Below are positions 10,128 to 18,406 of a stretch of DNA of 64,000 nucleotides, piece by piece. The first letter of the stretch is position 1; every line of letters begins with the position of its first letter. This DNA is from Escherichia coli (GTDB lineage: Bacteria > Pseudomonadota > Gammaproteobacteria > Enterobacterales > Enterobacteriaceae): assembly GCF_003334315.1 (NCBI RefSeq), contig NZ_QOWR01000007.1. The stretch is one strand, 5' to 3'. Made by a program: the position numbers and the translations under genes. Under the pieces are notes generated by a model. That model was not told the origin of the DNA. It made no database searches and saw only the letters and a list, made by a program, of their open reading frames with translations.

Positions 10128-11405
10128 TTAGCTTGTCGCTAACTGTACTTGCGGTTCTTCATCTTTAACTTTGATAAGCGTCCACAGCGCAATGGCGCCA
10201 ATAATGTCAAAGAAAGCCAGGGCAATAAAGAACGGCGCGAAGCCGATAATGTGAACGAATGCCCCGATAAACAGGTTGAAAATCAACTGACCGCTCCACG
10301 CACAGGCTCCTGCCATACCCACTGCGGTAGCTACTTCGTCTTTTTTGAACAGATCGCCACCCAGAGTTGCTGCTACAGTAGAAAGACATTGATGCGAGAA
10401 CGCGCCAATACTAATCAGTAATACGGCAATGTAGGGATTTTCGACAATACTCACCAGGCCAATCGTCATCATAATGACGGCTGCAATAGTGAAGGTAATT
10501 CTTCGTGAGTTAATTAAACTCACGCCGCGATCGTGGAAGAACTTCGCGACAAAACCACTGGCTAAACAGCCGAGATCGCCCAGCAGGAAAGGCAGCCAGA
10601 CGAACATGGCAATTTCTTTCAGGCTAAAATGCAGCGTTTCGACGAAGAAAATCGGCACCCAGAAGTTAATGGTTCCCCATGCCGGGTCTGCGAGAAAACG
10701 CGCGATGCCAATCCCCCAGAAATTACGTTGGCTGAGGATATGCTTGATTGACGTTTTTTCTTTCTTATCTGTTTTAAGATGCTGTTCTTGCCCTGATTCA
10801 ATATAGTGGCGCTCTTCATCAGAAAGGCGTTTGGCATCTTTCGGATCTTTATAACAAAAGAACCAAAATAAAGCCGCGAGCAAAGCAAGGCTACCTGAAA
10901 CAATAAACGCAAATTGCCAGCTATGAAACATAATGCACCAGGCAATCAACGGTGGAGCAAGCATCGCGCCGAGTGAGGTGCCCATATTGAAAACACCTGT
11001 CGCCACGCCACGCTCTTTTGCCGGGAACCATGTTGATGCGGTTTTTACACCCGCCGGAATTGCCGACGCTTCGCTGAAACCCATCAGGGCGCGCATAAAT
11101 GCCAGACCTGACCACGTTCCGGTTAGTGCATGGCCCATTGTCGCCAGGCCCCAAATTGCGGCACATATCGCAAAACTTAACTTCAGACCCACGGTATCAA
11201 TAAAGAAGCCCATTACCGGTTGCCCTAATGTATAGGCCAACTGGAATGCACTGACAATCCATGAATATTGCTCTTTAGTTATTCCGGTTGTCTCCATAAT
11301 CGTTGGAGCCGCAATACCTAACGCCGTTCTGTCCAGATAATTGATTACAGTGATAAAGCATACGAGGGCAATTATATGCCACCGGTAATTCTTTATTTTA
11401 TTCAT
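10128..11405 (-). CDS. MFS transporter, anion:cation symporter (ACS) family, resembling sugar-acid transporters (ExuT/DgoT/GudP type)
   Basis: 425-aa ORF, about 12 predicted TM segments; N-terminal ITVINYLDRTALGIAAP motif typical of ACS-family MFS; last gene of the island operon; parts look AT-rich by eye. Confidence 0.8.
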   Translation of the reverse strand: MNKIKNYRWHIIALVCFITVINYLDRTALGIAAPTIMETTGITKEQYSWIVSAFQLAYTLGQPVMGFFIDTVGLKLSFAICAAIWGLATMGHALTGTWSGLAFMRALMGFSEASAIPAGVKTASTWFPAKERGVATGVFNMGTSLGAMLAPPLIAWCIMFHSWQFAFIVSGSLALLAALFWFFCYKDPKDAKRLSDEERHYIESGQEQHLKTDKKEKTSIKHILSQRNFWGIGIARFLADPAWGTINFWVPIFFVETLHFSLKEIAMFVWLPFLLGDLGCLASGFVAKFFHDRGVSLINSRRITFTIAAVIMMTIGLVSIVENPYIAVLLISIGAFSHQCLSTVAATLGGDLFKKDEVATAVGMAGACAWSGQLIFNLFIGAFVHIIGFAPFFIALAFFDIIGAIALWTLIKVKDEEPQVQLATS

Positions 11406-11497
11406 GTTTAAACCTTTTAATTATATTAATAAACCCTGGTTGTTGGTGTTTCCGTGTAATAGGTAATAAAAATCAGGTACAGAGGAAATATTGAAAA

Positions 11498-13570
11498 TTA
11501 TTGTGTGTAAATTTCTCCATTTAAAAATTCTGGCCAGTTTTTTTCAAAGTAAATACCGTTAATACACGGTTGCATACGTAAAGACTTCACTTCGGTAATA
11601 AAAGAACCTTGCGAATATTTAATCGTTAATCTGTGATTTTTGTCTTCAGCCCGTTCAGAGCGAAAACGCCATTCTTCTTTTGCGCCGCGACGAGTTTGTG
11701 GGAGGCATTTGCCTTGTGGATCAATAACCATCCGCGCCCCACGACTGCCACCACCTGCGTCAATATAATGCGTCAATTGCGTTAATACCGCGGCCGAAGT
11801 CAGCGCCATATGCCGCCACATAAATAGTTCGGCAATTTCGCCTGCGTGATTGATGGTTAAACCGTGTTGTTGTACAAACTCACTTAGCAGCAGGGCGTCA
11901 CGGGTGGCGTGACGAACTTTATCGGCATGACAAATAAATCCGGCGTAATCAGACATTCGCGCCTGGATTTTTTCTTTCACCGTTACCAGCGCCATTCCGT
12001 TCTCATTTACCAGTGCCTGAGCGATAACTTCTCTGACTATATTCAGAGATGAGGCTACCAGCTGCGCGACATCACCCTCAACAGACCGCTTTTGTGTGCA
12101 ACCAATAAAGCGCGCCAGACGCACGGCAATAACCTGTCCGGCATTCAGCGCCGCACCGCCTGGTCGGGTAACGCCGTGAGTTCCGGCTACTTCTCCCACC
12201 GCAAAACAACCGGGCAGGGATGTTTGTCCCCAGATATCCACTTCAATGCCGCCATTCATGTGCTGATTATTCATGGCGAACTGCAGAGGCTGCGCGGTGA
12301 GATCGTAACCGTGCATCTTATACAGCGAGATAGACAGCGGATTCATTCGTTGCAGCCGTTCGATGGGCGATGCTGCCAGAGCGTCGTTATTTTCCAGATA
12401 CGCGCGAACGTCGTCGTCCAGTCGATCTAATGTGAAGGGCAAATCACCAGGCACCGCTTCAGGATTGCGATTGAAATCCATAAACACCCGACGACCATGT
12501 TGCTGCTCTTGCGCCACCGCCATATCTAACAAGCTGGAGCCAAAATCCATCACCCGAGTGGCGTGGAACGGCCACTGATAGCCTTTACGGAAAATGTTTG
12601 AAGCCAGCTCCTGGGTGGTGCGATAGTAATCCGCGAGGAAGTTATACTCGTTACCCTCAGCATCCACGGAATAGATATACGGGATCACCTGTACATAGGT
12701 GCCGGATAAATTCCACGGAAACGTGCTACGCGGCGTGCCTATACCAAACTGGCTTTCGGTCAGATTGGTTAGCGTCAGGCCTTCCTCCAGCGCCAGCCCC
12801 AGCGAGCCAAAACATTTGTGTGGGTACACACTGTCGCGATAAAGCTCGCCAGGCCCTCCTGTTGCCAGTACCACATTGGGCGCAGTCACAATTGCCAGCC
12901 CCCAAGGGTTATGGGCGCGATGACCGGTCGCGAGGATTGCCCCCGCAACACGGTCTTCGCCGTTTTCGTCACGCTGATGCAGCAGTTTAATCACTGTTGC
13001 ACTGGTCAACACTGGAATGGCGAGGCGCTGTACTTCTTCCAACAGCACTTTCACCATTAACCTTGAGGTACGCGGCCCACACGAGGTTGCACGCCCGGCT
13101 TCGTCATGGTCGGTTTGATAACGAAGAATCGCGCCATAGCGATCTTCCGGTAATTCCAGACCAAGATATTGCAACCCGCCAAGAGTGTGCAGAGAACCTA
13201 CCGCTTCGACATAAGCGGTGTCGTGATCCATCGCCCCACCGCTCGCCAGTGCCTCTGCCAGTTTGGTGAAGTTGTCGCCGTTGCCCGCGGTAGCGGCGGT
13301 AAACAGTGTCTGTTTATCGGAACCAGAACATGCCGACGTCCCCATATATAACCCGGCAGTGGCGATCAGCACATTTTGCTGGCGGCGTTTAAGTTCCACA
13401 GCTGCACGCAGCCCGGCTGCACCACTGCCGACTACCAGGGCATCTGTTTGCCAGAGTGGGTAATCAACACCGTCTACCGTGACAACCCATGCGGGCTCTG
13501 CCTGTGCAAAACCCTTTGGGAAAGTAACGTGCGTCAGCGCATCAAGGATGGTGTCATCAAGCTGACTCAT
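11498..13570 (-). CDS. FAD-dependent oxidoreductase, fumarate reductase/succinate dehydrogenase flavoprotein-like
   Basis: 690-aa ORF; dinucleotide-binding motif DALVVGSGAAGLRAAVEL near N-terminus; 4-bp overlap (ATGA) with the upstream CoA-transferase gene. Confidence 0.7.
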   Translation of the reverse strand: MSQLDDTILDALTHVTFPKGFAQAEPAWVVTVDGVDYPLWQTDALVVGSGAAGLRAAVELKRRQQNVLIATAGLYMGTSACSGSDKQTLFTAATAGNGDNFTKLAEALASGGAMDHDTAYVEAVGSLHTLGGLQYLGLELPEDRYGAILRYQTDHDEAGRATSCGPRTSRLMVKVLLEEVQRLAIPVLTSATVIKLLHQRDENGEDRVAGAILATGHRAHNPWGLAIVTAPNVVLATGGPGELYRDSVYPHKCFGSLGLALEEGLTLTNLTESQFGIGTPRSTFPWNLSGTYVQVIPYIYSVDAEGNEYNFLADYYRTTQELASNIFRKGYQWPFHATRVMDFGSSLLDMAVAQEQQHGRRVFMDFNRNPEAVPGDLPFTLDRLDDDVRAYLENNDALAASPIERLQRMNPLSISLYKMHGYDLTAQPLQFAMNNQHMNGGIEVDIWGQTSLPGCFAVGEVAGTHGVTRPGGAALNAGQVIAVRLARFIGCTQKRSVEGDVAQLVASSLNIVREVIAQALVNENGMALVTVKEKIQARMSDYAGFICHADKVRHATRDALLLSEFVQQHGLTINHAGEIAELFMWRHMALTSAAVLTQLTHYIDAGGGSRGARMVIDPQGKCLPQTRRGAKEEWRFRSERAEDKNHRLTIKYSQGSFITEVKSLRMQPCINGIYFEKNWPEFLNGEIYTQ

Positions 13571-17547: not shown

Positions 17548-17734
17548 ACAATAACTCTCTTTTTTGAATATTGTTTTCTAAGTGACAATTAGCTTGCGAC
17601 GTGCCGCAAGAAAGATCAACCATCTGGTTGGTTGATATGCGATAGTGATCACAGGACATTTGATAACTTGATGAAAGTACAAGTTTTTATCCTTTTTACT
17701 GGAGCTTCTAATTAATCGGGTTAAGATAGTTATC
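17548..17734. promoter_or_regulatory. Divergent promoter/operator region between the island operon and its TetR regulator
   Basis: 187-bp AT-rich intergenic region between divergent genes; contains inverted repeats (see operator feature). Confidence 0.45.
17615..17636. promoter_or_regulatory. Candidate TetR-type operator (8-6-8 inverted repeat)
   Basis: ATCAACCA-tctggt-TGGTTGAT, perfect 8-bp arms read directly from sequence, 99 bp upstream of the TetR start; a second IR cttgcg-acgtgc-cgcaag lies at 17593-17610. Confidence 0.4.
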
Positions 17735-18406
17735 TTGAAGAGGTCGTGGGGAAGCGTTATGTATCTTGATACCAGCAACGTACAGAGCCTGAAGGAAAAG
17801 CTGCTGTTATGCGCGGTTAATGAATTTGCCGAATATGGTTATGAAGGGGCCAGGGTCGATAATATTGTTAAGGCTGCGGGGTGTAGTAAACAGACGGTTT
17901 ATCATCACTTTGGTAATAAAGAAAATTTATTTATTGAAGTACTGGAATATACCTGGAACGATATTCGACAAAAAGAAAAGGCCCTTGATTTCTCAGATCT
18001 TCCGCCACAAAAAGCTATTGAGAAAATTATTGATTTTACATGGGATTATTATATTGCTAACCCCTGGTTTTTAAAAATTGTGCATAGTGAAAATCAAAGT
18101 AAAGGTGTGCATTATGCAAAATCACAGCGTCTCTTAGAAATTAACCATGCGCACTTGCAGTTAATGGAATCCTTATTGGATGAAGGGAAGAAACACAATA
18201 TTTTTAAGCCAGATATCGACCCATTGCAGGTGAATATTAATATTGCTGCGCTTGGGGGATATTATTTGATCAACCAGCATACGCTTGGCCTGGTTTATCA
18301 TATCAGTATGGTTTCCCCCCAGGCACTGGAAGCCAGACGTAAGGTCATCAAAGAGACGCTCCTTAGCTGGCTTTTGGTTGATCCTTCATCTACTGCGCAC
18401 GAATAA
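17735..18406 (+). CDS. TetR/AcrR-family transcriptional regulator
   Basis: 223-aa ORF; N-terminal HTH ([28 protein letters not shown]); AT-rich by eye; alternative start at 17759; 3' end overlaps the ytfB stop by 17 bp. Confidence 0.8.

Follow-up and report, generated by a model that had tools for sequence, protein, structure and literature searches.

A strain-variable catabolic operon between rplI and ytfB of Escherichia coli, probably long resident and with inherited AT-rich ends

Introduction

The ydi cluster of Escherichia coli and the propionate CoA-transferase pathways of the Clostridium propionicum type are among the closest described systems for the operon reported here, which includes a CoA-transferase. 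At the chromosomal position itself, E. coli K-12 offers the nearest comparison. The slot between rplI and ytfB is the same, and K-12 ytfA corresponds with 98% identity to the 3' part of a TetR-family gene from window position 18004 onward. K-12 differs in lacking window 10083-18003, which holds the transporter and all five enzyme genes as well as the promoter region and the 5' end of TetR, and in carrying instead yjfZ (GC 0.406) with a fragment of 102 bp that matches part of the short-chain dehydrogenase/reductase (SDR) gene at 82% identity. The K-12 yjfZ/ytfA spacer has been marked HNS (PMC3946193), and in ETEC strain H10407 a ChIP-seq peak shows CRP occupancy between ETEC_4557 and ytfA (PMC4287617). 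A literature search found no publication on this operon; it is missing from K-12 and has therefore gone unstudied, though it is present in 57% of complete genomes and CRP-bound in H10407.

We analysed a 64-kb stretch of E. coli chromosome (the window), in which an initial annotation had read the base composition of the locus as a sign of horizontal acquisition, possibly from more than one source. Our results suggest, with a probability of about 0.72, a catabolic operon that varies among strains and has long resided in the Escherichia chromosome, and whose AT-rich ends were inherited and are not a recent patchwork.

Results

Organization of the locus

Bases 10128-18406 occupy the interval from the rplI terminator to ytfB and hold seven ORFs for a regulator, enzymes and a transporter, 13% of the window. 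A TetR regulator gene is divergent to an operon of SDR, TIM-barrel, enoyl-CoA hydratase, CoA-transferase, flavoprotein and MFS genes. The intrinsic terminator of rplI (10051-10078, plus strand) reads ACGCCGACC-AGT-GGTCGGCGT, followed by a T-rich tail. The flank common to all E. coli stops at 10079-10086, just past this terminator, and these homology end-points therefore define the left border of the variable locus. At the other end, the 3' ends of the TetR gene and ytfB overlap by 17 bp.

All operon genes lie on the minus strand. The first encodes the SDR (16756-17547), which matched NF009386 with 420 bits against a cut-off of 250. The second product is a xylose-isomerase-like TIM-barrel protein of the sugar phosphate isomerase/epimerase family (15904-16746), whose PDB relatives 3qc0 and 3ju2 (E ~7e-85) are uncharacterised structural-genomics proteins. 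Next, a short-chain enoyl-CoA hydratase of the crotonase family (15118-15894) was assigned by profile match, its best solved relative being 3-hydroxypropionyl-CoA dehydratase (5zai, E 3.6e-40). The fused family-I CoA-transferase (13567-15108) is YdiF-like by NCBIfam matches and shows full-length homology to the fused alpha/beta enzyme, with PDB 2ahu (E. coli YdiF, E 1.8e-113) spanning residues 6-508. The FAD-dependent oxidoreductase of 690 aa (11498-13570) carries an FAD_binding_2 domain and is a distant relative of the L-aspartate oxidase and fumarate reductase flavoproteins. The MFS transporter gene (10128-11405) belongs to the anion:cation symporter (D-galactonate transporter) subfamily, with a TIGR00893 match at E 6e-94 that stays below the family cut-off. 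Together with the spacer 11406-11497 and the last ~77 flavoprotein codons, it forms a transporter cassette (10087-11729, minus strand, GC 0.446).

The TetR/AcrR-family regulator gene (17759-18406, plus strand), which K-12 has as the pseudogene ytfA, is intact here. Its product has an N-terminal HTH, with 19 TetR-family NCBIfam models matching residues ~14-100 of the ORF, and PDB matches within the family, e.g. 3npi (E 3e-16). The divergent promoter region contains a candidate TetR operator of 23 bp (17614-17636), GATCAACCATCTGGTTGGTTGAT, with perfect 8-nt arms and a 6-nt spacer. In an alignment of six enteric sequences it was the best-conserved element of the region, with 22 of 23 positions invariant against a mean column identity of 47%. 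A predicted CRP site (17638-17653, minus strand), TGTGATCACTATCGCA, is identical over its 16 nt to the site reported under the H10407 ChIP-seq peak.

Base composition

Gene GC was compared with the 52 non-island genes among the 59 annotated in the window (mean 0.526, sd 0.027). As the initial annotation had stated, the TetR gene is AT-rich: its GC of 0.395 (z -4.8; GC3 0.394) is the lowest of all 59 genes, and the annotation's example at 18001-18060 has a GC of 0.283. Another TetR-family gene of the window, bdcR, also has a GC3 of 0.394, and yjgH one of 0.379. The AT-rich stretches noted in the MFS gene were confirmed as well (gene GC 0.472, z -2.0), and composition is patchy along the gene, 200-bp blocks ranging between 0.33 and 0.56. 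The MFS-flavoprotein spacer (11406-11497) and the TetR/SDR spacer have GC of 0.283 and 0.370.

On the other hand, the CoA-transferase and flavoprotein genes, described as GC-rich relative to the flanking core genes, are not: at 0.530 and 0.526 they equal the core mean and lie below ytfB (0.548) and fklB (0.556). The five enzyme genes range from 0.495 to 0.550, and the enzyme block as a whole is at 0.528, the remainder of the window being at 0.519 and rpsF-rplI at 0.512. In GC3 (0.52-0.58) these genes fall just under the core mean of 0.583 and within 1 sd, their codon-usage z-scores run from -0.8 to +0.2, and their dinucleotide signature is unremarkable.

Sliding GC was calculated in 500-bp windows at 100-bp steps across the 64 kb. 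Nine of the 13 windows below 0.42 GC start in the island (11101-11401 and 17501-17901), with values of 0.37-0.41 over 11101-11900 and 0.37-0.40 over 17501-18400; the other four belong to the ulaG/ulaA spacer or to a stretch near 61001. In GC and codon usage the enzyme genes, 73% of the island, resemble the core genes, and the composition departs from these only in TetR, MFS and the spacers. The compositional mosaic is only an AT-rich periphery (TetR with its promoter, the transporter cassette and its spacer) around a host-like enzyme block. AT-coded residues are plentiful in the TetR protein (FYMINK 0.31, GARP 0.17), and protein composition alone cannot account for the low GC3.

That such differences are an insignificant chance fluctuation is practically untenable and was rejected: gene-to-gene GC does vary in the window by the sd given above and other short AT-rich patches exist, but TetR is the lowest of 59 genes, nine of the 13 lowest windows fall in 13% of the sequence, and five independent lineages show AT-richness in these very genes, a conservation across orthologues that refutes chance.

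Variation within E. coli

In a survey of 5426 complete E. coli genomes, the enzyme core was present in 3113 (57%). The transporter end comprises two unrelated cassettes, MFS in 1685 genomes (31%) and TRAP in 1446 (27%). Their junction with the rest of the operon, at window 11730, falls within the flavoprotein gene. Strains with the TRAP variant, such as Ec-U7 and the O22:H8 strain 154, share TetR, SDR, TIM-barrel, hydratase and CoA-transferase genes, most of the flavoprotein gene and the locus. They differ left of 11730, where a 3.2-kb TRAP cassette of three genes (GC 0.435) replaces MFS, and in the last ~77 flavoprotein residues. The whole operon is missing from about 43% of strains, an absence that is due to deletion. 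K-12-type strains retain only a 5'-truncated TetR plus yjfZ, and the insertion slot adjoining rplI is occupied by yjfZ or a hipBA-like pair.

E. coli alleles differ by up to 23%, in patches. The flavoprotein 3' part (11730-12100) falls into two allele classes that are 76-77% identical, and allele classes within E. coli stand further apart than E. coli and E. albertii do. The 90-95% identity band holds 35% of carriers versus 0.04% for a core control of the same length. Segments of these deeply diverged alleles have been reassorted by homologous recombination. The modularity of the locus is real, and it is revealed by comparison, not by composition.

The observation that no integrase, IS element, tRNA or direct-repeat boundary is visible was upheld. 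ARAGORN found neither a tRNA nor a tmRNA gene anywhere in the 64 kb, no repeat pair or att site spans the island borders, and none of the seven ORFs is an IS or integrase gene; IS1, IS4 and IS609 occur at this locus only in other strains' copies. A search for plasmid copies of the island found no true ones. Turnover of the locus appears to proceed via homologous recombination and deletion.

Relatives in other taxa and horizontal entry

Relatives were sought by a peptide-pattern scan of about 100,000 species representatives, a method that can miss some. The same locus and gene order were found in E. whittamii, E. albertii, Klebsiella spallanzanii, Entomohabitans and a divergent Escherichia sp. 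(L010), with island protein identities of 77-99% and flanking-gene identities of 59-100%. Island DNA identity falls from 92% in E. whittamii and 90% in E. albertii to 78% in K. spallanzanii and about 75% in Entomohabitans. Such a shared position, with divergence growing with species distance, would fit descent without any horizontal transfer, the island being an ancestral enterobacterial locus lost many times. In TetR and the transporter, AT-richness would then come only from amino acids with AT-rich codons, from promoter or H-NS-binding DNA that is itself AT-rich, and from the weakness of codon selection where expression is low. Frequent deletion, the low GC3 of bdcR and yjgH, the residue composition of TetR and the H-NS mark at the K-12 remnant agree with this explanation.

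However, within Enterobacteriaceae the scan found no carrier beyond Escherichia, one Klebsiella species and Entomohabitans, and no match in Salmonella, Citrobacter, Enterobacter or most Klebsiella representatives, so that vertical descent would require many losses. The next relatives, in Acidobacteria, Accumulibacter and Pseudovibrio, belong to unrelated phyla and are only 60-64% identical. Given this patchy distribution and the distance of the next relatives, ancient horizontal entry of the island is likely. Descent without transfer is further opposed by the E. coli allele classes that exceed the E. coli-E. albertii divergence, and by L010, whose island is 79% identical in DNA while its flanks are 97.6% identical, showing that whole-island replacement by transfer does occur at the locus. 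In K. spallanzanii, moreover, the enzymes have a GC3 of 0.63-0.71 versus 0.46 for TetR and 0.51 for MFS, a gap larger than expression level usually gives. We consider an origin free of transfer quite unlikely.

Age of the compositional pattern

In every enteric carrier TetR has a GC of 0.39-0.43 and MFS one of 0.45-0.47. The GC3 of the enzyme genes tracks the host; the AT-rich periphery has persisted while they drifted with each host's GC. Since the pattern is common to orthologous islands at rplI-ytfB in four other species, it is old and not the footprint of recent multi-source assembly; since these islands are 75-81% identical in DNA, any assembly predates the Escherichia/Klebsiella split. 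The AT-rich pattern was thus inherited, being present in the common ancestor of the Escherichia, K. spallanzanii and Entomohabitans copies. TetR is as diverged from K. spallanzanii as the enzymes are (79% vs 81% nucleotide identity), and a much closer relationship of TetR or MFS than of the enzymes between E. coli and K. spallanzanii or Entomohabitans was looked for and not seen.

These results bear on the idea that the island was pieced together from donors, with an AT-rich source of TetR and MFS and a GC-rich source of the enzymes. TetR and MFS are indeed compositional outliers, the island is accessory, and both interchangeable transporter cassettes are AT-rich. The flavoprotein gene is separate in Pseudovibrio and Accumulibacter, where it has a LacI regulator of its own, and the Acidobacteria clusters lack it, which indicates that the operon is composite on a deep time scale. 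But the synteny-separable flavoprotein is not the compositionally odd module, and the enzymes are not GC-rich. TetR, for its part, has a conserved candidate operator and keeps its association with the enzyme genes even across distant phyla: it adjoins SDR-(TIM)-ECH-CoAT genes in Pseudovibrio, has SDR-ECH-CoAT as neighbours in two Acidobacteria/Bryobacterales loci (L019, L022) and lies close to the CoA-transferase gene in Pseudomonas. By these neighbourhoods, the AT-rich TetR is the enzymes' cognate divergent partner and was not brought in from another source. With host-like enzymes and a shared, old pattern, assembly from several donors on the time scale of this strain is largely refuted, and we regard it as very unlikely. 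The accessory and modular character of the island was borne out; composition as evidence for it, and recent assembly, were not.

Discussion

The long-resident operon that we favour would serve a catabolic pathway whose substrate class and reaction order can be inferred from its genes. The MFS symporter would import a carboxylic acid, the presumed substrate, and the YdiF-like CoA-transferase would activate it as a CoA thioester. The dehydrogenase, the TIM-barrel isomerase/dehydratase, the short-chain enoyl-CoA hydratase and the flavoprotein could then carry out beta-oxidation-like processing. Judging from sequence, the divergently encoded TetR would repress the operon at the conserved 23-bp palindrome, and CRP may activate it from the adjoining site. 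Our favoured guess is that the AT-rich periphery persists through H-NS targeting or through weak codon selection on low-expression genes.

A bolder proposal, which we hold to be rather unlikely, is a CoA-dependent pathway, so far uncharacterised, that handles a hydroxy- or enoyl-carboxylic acid of relevance in the gut, with ends kept AT-rich by selection as an H-NS silencing architecture since before the Escherichia/Klebsiella split, not as leftover foreign composition. Its enzyme set would be a YdiF-like transferase, a short-chain crotonase, a TIM-barrel enzyme and a NadB/FrdA-like flavoprotein.

Judging GC by eye misled twice here: the 'GC-rich' genes were average, and the AT-rich gene was the operon's oldest partner, not an add-on. 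This is an ordinary flexible-genome locus, and a specialist would find nothing surprising in these results. It does illustrate, cleanly and on a small scale, how an E. coli accessory operon can change with no mobile element involved: cassettes are swapped, the operon is deleted, and deeply diverged alleles recombine. Identification of the substrate could add a nutrient niche separating E. coli lineages.

Compared with classical genomic and pathogenicity islands, which are tRNA-linked, integrase-bearing and repeat-flanked, the locus shares strain-variable presence, and its composition is atypical in part, in TetR, MFS and the spacers. It is bordered by a terminator on one side and by overlapping convergent genes on the other, without tRNA, integrase, IS or direct repeats. 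It resembles TetR-repressed catabolic operons such as those of Bacillus FadR/YsiA and AcuR-acuI in its divergent TetR, palindromic candidate operator in the spacer and CoA-thioester enzymes, and this TetR has weak NCBIfam similarity to Bacillus FadR and AcuR, all far below family cut-offs. With the ydi cluster it has in common a CoA-transferase, clearly homologous to YdiF, alongside chemistry on short-chain enoyl-CoA. It differs from the ydi and propionate CoA-transferase systems in that the TIM-barrel protein and the NadB/FrdA-like flavoprotein take the place of acyl-CoA dehydrogenase/ETF.

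Composition of the island and its flanks

Between positions 9500 and 19200, the window was 100% identical to E. coli strain Z1323PEC0011, save for an IS1 in that strain, and the genes flanking the island are ula, rpsF-priB-rpsR-rplI, ytfB, fklB, cycA and ytfE, on to tabA. This match, together with the flanking gene set, identified the window by sequence as E. coli chromosome. The interval between the rplI terminator and ytfB holds seven intact genes. On the minus strand are those for an MFS transporter (10128-11405), a FAD-dependent oxidoreductase (flavoprotein, 11498-13570), a YdiF-like CoA-transferase (13567-15108), an enoyl-CoA hydratase (15118-15894), a xylose-isomerase-like TIM-barrel protein (15904-16746) and a short-chain dehydrogenase (SDR, 16756-17547). 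The TetR regulator gene (17759-18406, plus strand) is divergent to this operon, and its 3' end overlaps that of ytfB by 17 bp. An Rfam search found the RpsF leader (RF02893, 8505-8589, 110 bits) at its expected place upstream of rpsF, and no other RNA family. Elsewhere in the window, cpdB (24937-26909, minus strand) reads as two separate ORFs, at 24937-26022 and at 26040-26909, and is annotated as frameshifted in Z1323PEC0011; it is likely a pseudogene or a sequencing error. Genes as far as ytfQ (~39509) share 99.8-100% identity with Z1323PEC0011, and those from ytfR through nrdG 96-98%, a drop (39600-48900 and beyond) that looks like a recombination boundary between otherwise near-identical strains.

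Base composition was examined in 59 genes (seven in the island, 52 elsewhere), using RefSeq annotation carried over from a near-identical strain. Each gene was assigned its overall GC, its GC at each codon position and a synonymous-codon log-likelihood, scored leave-one-out with the core genes of the window as reference. The 52 non-island core genes had a mean GC of 0.526 (sd 0.027) and a mean GC3 of 0.583 (sd 0.067). The TetR gene had the lowest GC of all 59 genes (0.395, z -4.8; GC3 0.394), and the segment 18001-18060, which the initial annotation had offered as an example of AT-richness, was at 0.283. The AT-rich stretches it described in the MFS gene were also confirmed (gene GC 0.472, z -2.0; 200-bp blocks spanning 0.33-0.56). 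The MFS/flavoprotein and TetR/SDR spacers had a GC of 0.283 and 0.370, and when the whole 64 kb was scanned, 9 of the 13 500-bp windows below 0.42 GC lay within the island. This AT-richness goes far beyond what chance would give.

The CoA-transferase and flavoprotein genes, which had been called GC-rich, were at 0.530 and 0.526, lower than the neighbouring ytfB (0.548) and fklB (0.556); together with the hydratase (0.495), TIM-barrel (0.550) and SDR (0.542) genes, they lay on the core mean. The enzyme block as a whole had a GC of 0.528 vs 0.519 in the remaining window, with a GC3 of 0.52-0.58 that is slightly low, if anything, relative to the core. Codon scores of the enzyme genes were less than 1 sd from the core and their dinucleotide signature was not outlying. 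The AT-rich regulator and transporter are real, but the GC-rich enzymes are not: among the island genes, only TetR and MFS differ from the host-like composition.

The AT-rich periphery is most likely explained by a mixture of three factors: an AT-richer original source, codon selection that is weak in genes of low expression, and constraints from H-NS or the promoter. AT-coded residues are abundant in the TetR protein, and bdcR, another TetR-family gene of the window, has a GC3 (0.394) as low as that of the island TetR. A survey of K-12 promoters (PMC3946193) marks the yjfZ/ytfA and ulaG/ulaA spacers as associated with H-NS, and the divergent ulaG/ulaA spacer (2901-3600, GC 0.37-0.40) is the window's other strongly AT-rich spot, comparable to the TetR region of the island. 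As a side observation, yjgH, which lies with bdcR in 61304-63207, also has a GC3 as low as the island TetR (0.379), and that of bdcA is low as well (0.487); this region may be another compositionally odd patch.

The compositional pattern in other taxa

A pattern-based scan with the CoA-transferase as query was performed on one genome per species across about 100,000 species. The same rplI-ytfB slot and gene order were found in E. whittamii, E. albertii, Klebsiella spallanzanii, Entomohabitans teleogrylli and a divergent Escherichia sp. Island DNA identity dropped with species distance (~92% in E. whittamii, ~90% in E. albertii, ~78% in K. spallanzanii and ~75% in Entomohabitans), in parallel with the non-ribosomal flanking genes. 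The exception was the divergent Escherichia sp., in which an island only 79% identical sits beside flanks of 97.6% identity, which is evidence that the whole island was replaced. The next relatives, 60-64% identical, were in Acidobacteria/Bryobacterales, Accumulibacter and Pseudovibrio.

A plasmid origin was rejected, since the E. coli 'plasmid' matches were records of 0.37-4.8 Mb bearing ytfB, hence chromosomal DNA; the search of plasmid records found no true plasmid copy of the island, and the other matches were Rhizobium and Sinorhizobium flavoprotein homologues within sugar-utilisation clusters.

The initial annotation had read the composition as a sign of horizontal acquisition, possibly from more than one source. 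What survives of this reading is an accessory and modular island, given its 57% carriage and the cassette swap described below; composition as a sign of recent multi-donor assembly does not hold. In Pseudovibrio, a divergent TetR gene adjoins SDR-TIM-ECH-CoAT (TIM, the TIM-barrel protein; ECH, the hydratase; CoAT, the CoA-transferase), TetR also borders SDR-ECH-CoAT at two Acidobacteria/Bryobacterales loci (L019 and L022) and lies near CoAT in Pseudomonas, which marks it as the cognate partner of the enzyme genes. A 23-bp palindrome in the TetR/SDR spacer (17614-17636) is nearly invariant in six enteric sequences while its surroundings are 47% conserved, which fits a co-evolving candidate TetR operator. 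In every enteric carrier TetR (GC 0.39-0.43) and MFS (0.45-0.47) are AT-rich, whereas the enzyme genes track host composition, with a GC3 of 0.63-0.71 in K. spallanzanii. Between E. coli and K. spallanzanii, nucleotide identity was 79.3% for TetR and 81.0% for the enzymes; TetR has diverged as much as they have and thus did not join them later. In distant taxa, TetR and the genes next to it have equal GC3. The flavoprotein is separable by synteny: in Pseudovibrio and Accumulibacter it comes with a LacI regulator of its own, the Acidobacteria clusters lack it, and on Rhizobium plasmids it occurs in sugar clusters. Yet it is ordinary in composition. The cognate TetR, the conserved palindrome, AT-richness in all enteric carriers and equal divergence together argue that the compositional pattern is old, inherited and common to orthologous copies in other genera, rather than a product of recent multi-donor assembly.

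Variation of the island within E. coli

The flanks were matched in all 5426 complete E. coli genomes, but the enzyme core in only 3113 (57%). The transporter end exists in two unrelated forms, an MFS cassette (1685 genomes) and a three-gene TRAP cassette (1446 genomes), which together make up the carriers. Between the two types, homology is lost at 10079-10086, just past the rplI terminator, and regained within the flavoprotein gene at 11730, which means that the final ~77 flavoprotein residues move with the cassette. Both cassettes are AT-rich (GC 0.446 for MFS, 0.435 for TRAP). The low diversity of the TRAP cassette had suggested a recent import, which was ruled out by the same cassette at 91.8% identity in a divergent Escherichia lineage. 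The insertion slot beside rplI is empty in the window, holds yjfZ (GC 0.406) in some strains and a hipBA-like pair (GC 0.423) in B2-type strains. On re-checking, no tRNA, boundary repeats, IS or integrase were found at the island, as initially noted.

In K-12-type strains, window positions 10083-18003 are gone, leaving yjfZ, an SDR fragment and the TetR 3' part (pseudogene ytfA); some of these strains carry IS609 inside the remnant. The 102-bp SDR fragment beside ytfA (3557-3658 in the K-12-type locus L002; window 17357-17458) was 82% identical to part of the SDR gene, and 82-85% across all island alleles examined; either the deletion may have arisen in an island lineage that had diverged, or the fragment is heavily decayed.

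As for allelic divergence, the 90-95% identity band contained 1091 of 3153 enzyme cores vs 2 of 5426 for a core control of the same length (tamA-tamB). Flavoprotein segment 11730-12100 falls into two E. coli classes only 76-77% identical to each other, a gap exceeding E. coli-E. albertii (83%) and E. coli-E. whittamii (87%) divergence, and one B2 strain joins the MFS cassette to the flavoprotein class of TRAP strains. In O22:H8 strain 154 (L043 11272-12540; window 17548-19028), the TetR 3' half and the core gene ytfB, there annotated as a LysM-like protein, shared only 77% identity with every other Escherichia allele in the comparison, E. albertii included, which points to a segment probably imported from an unsampled lineage. 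Segment-wise comparison showed that the window's closest relative switches between segments. The allele classes, shifting nearest relative and excess divergence indicate that the island is mosaic by ancestry, apparently via homologous recombination, which is distinct from its compositional pattern.

Separately, the flavoprotein gene has an internal stop in B2 strain MS7163 (L041 5704-7776), which may reflect decay of the operon in part of the lineages that still carry it; in Z1323PEC0011, the IS1 truncates this gene at about window position 11588. Strains SCPM-O-B-8794 and SCPM-O-B-7615, labelled E. coli, reached only ~89-92% identity to the window, core genes included (tamAB 89.7%), and probably represent a cryptic lineage of Escherichia rather than E. 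coli proper.

Predicted function of the operon

The CoA-transferase is clearly homologous to YdiF (PDB 2ahu, E 1.8e-113), the hydratase has 3-hydroxypropionyl-CoA dehydratase as its best relative of solved structure, and the SDR passes the NCBIfam '3-ketoacyl-ACP reductase' model. PDB sequence searches matched the TIM-barrel protein to uncharacterised structures only, and SDR and TetR only to uncharacterised or generic relatives. The flavoprotein has a single FAD_binding_2 domain and is distantly related to NadB/FrdA; in Pseudomonas, the places of flavoprotein and hydratase are taken by an acyl-CoA dehydrogenase and a DUF993 protein. MFS falls in the anion:cation symporter group. A quinate/shikimate-to-cyclohexanecarboxylate pathway, raised from the enzyme types, was dropped as nothing supports it, and no published description of the operon was found in the literature.

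The best reading of these families is an operon for a short carboxylic acid, in which the MFS end would import a short hydroxy-, keto- or enoyl-carboxylic acid, the enzymes would handle it as a CoA thioester, and CRP would activate and TetR repress expression. As a flexible-genome locus the island is routine, and the catabolic operon that it carries is uncharacterised. A CRP ChIP-seq peak has been reported at the TetR/operon promoter in ETEC H10407 (PMC4287617), and by sequence comparison the predicted CRP site of the window (17638-17653) is identical to the site in that peak.
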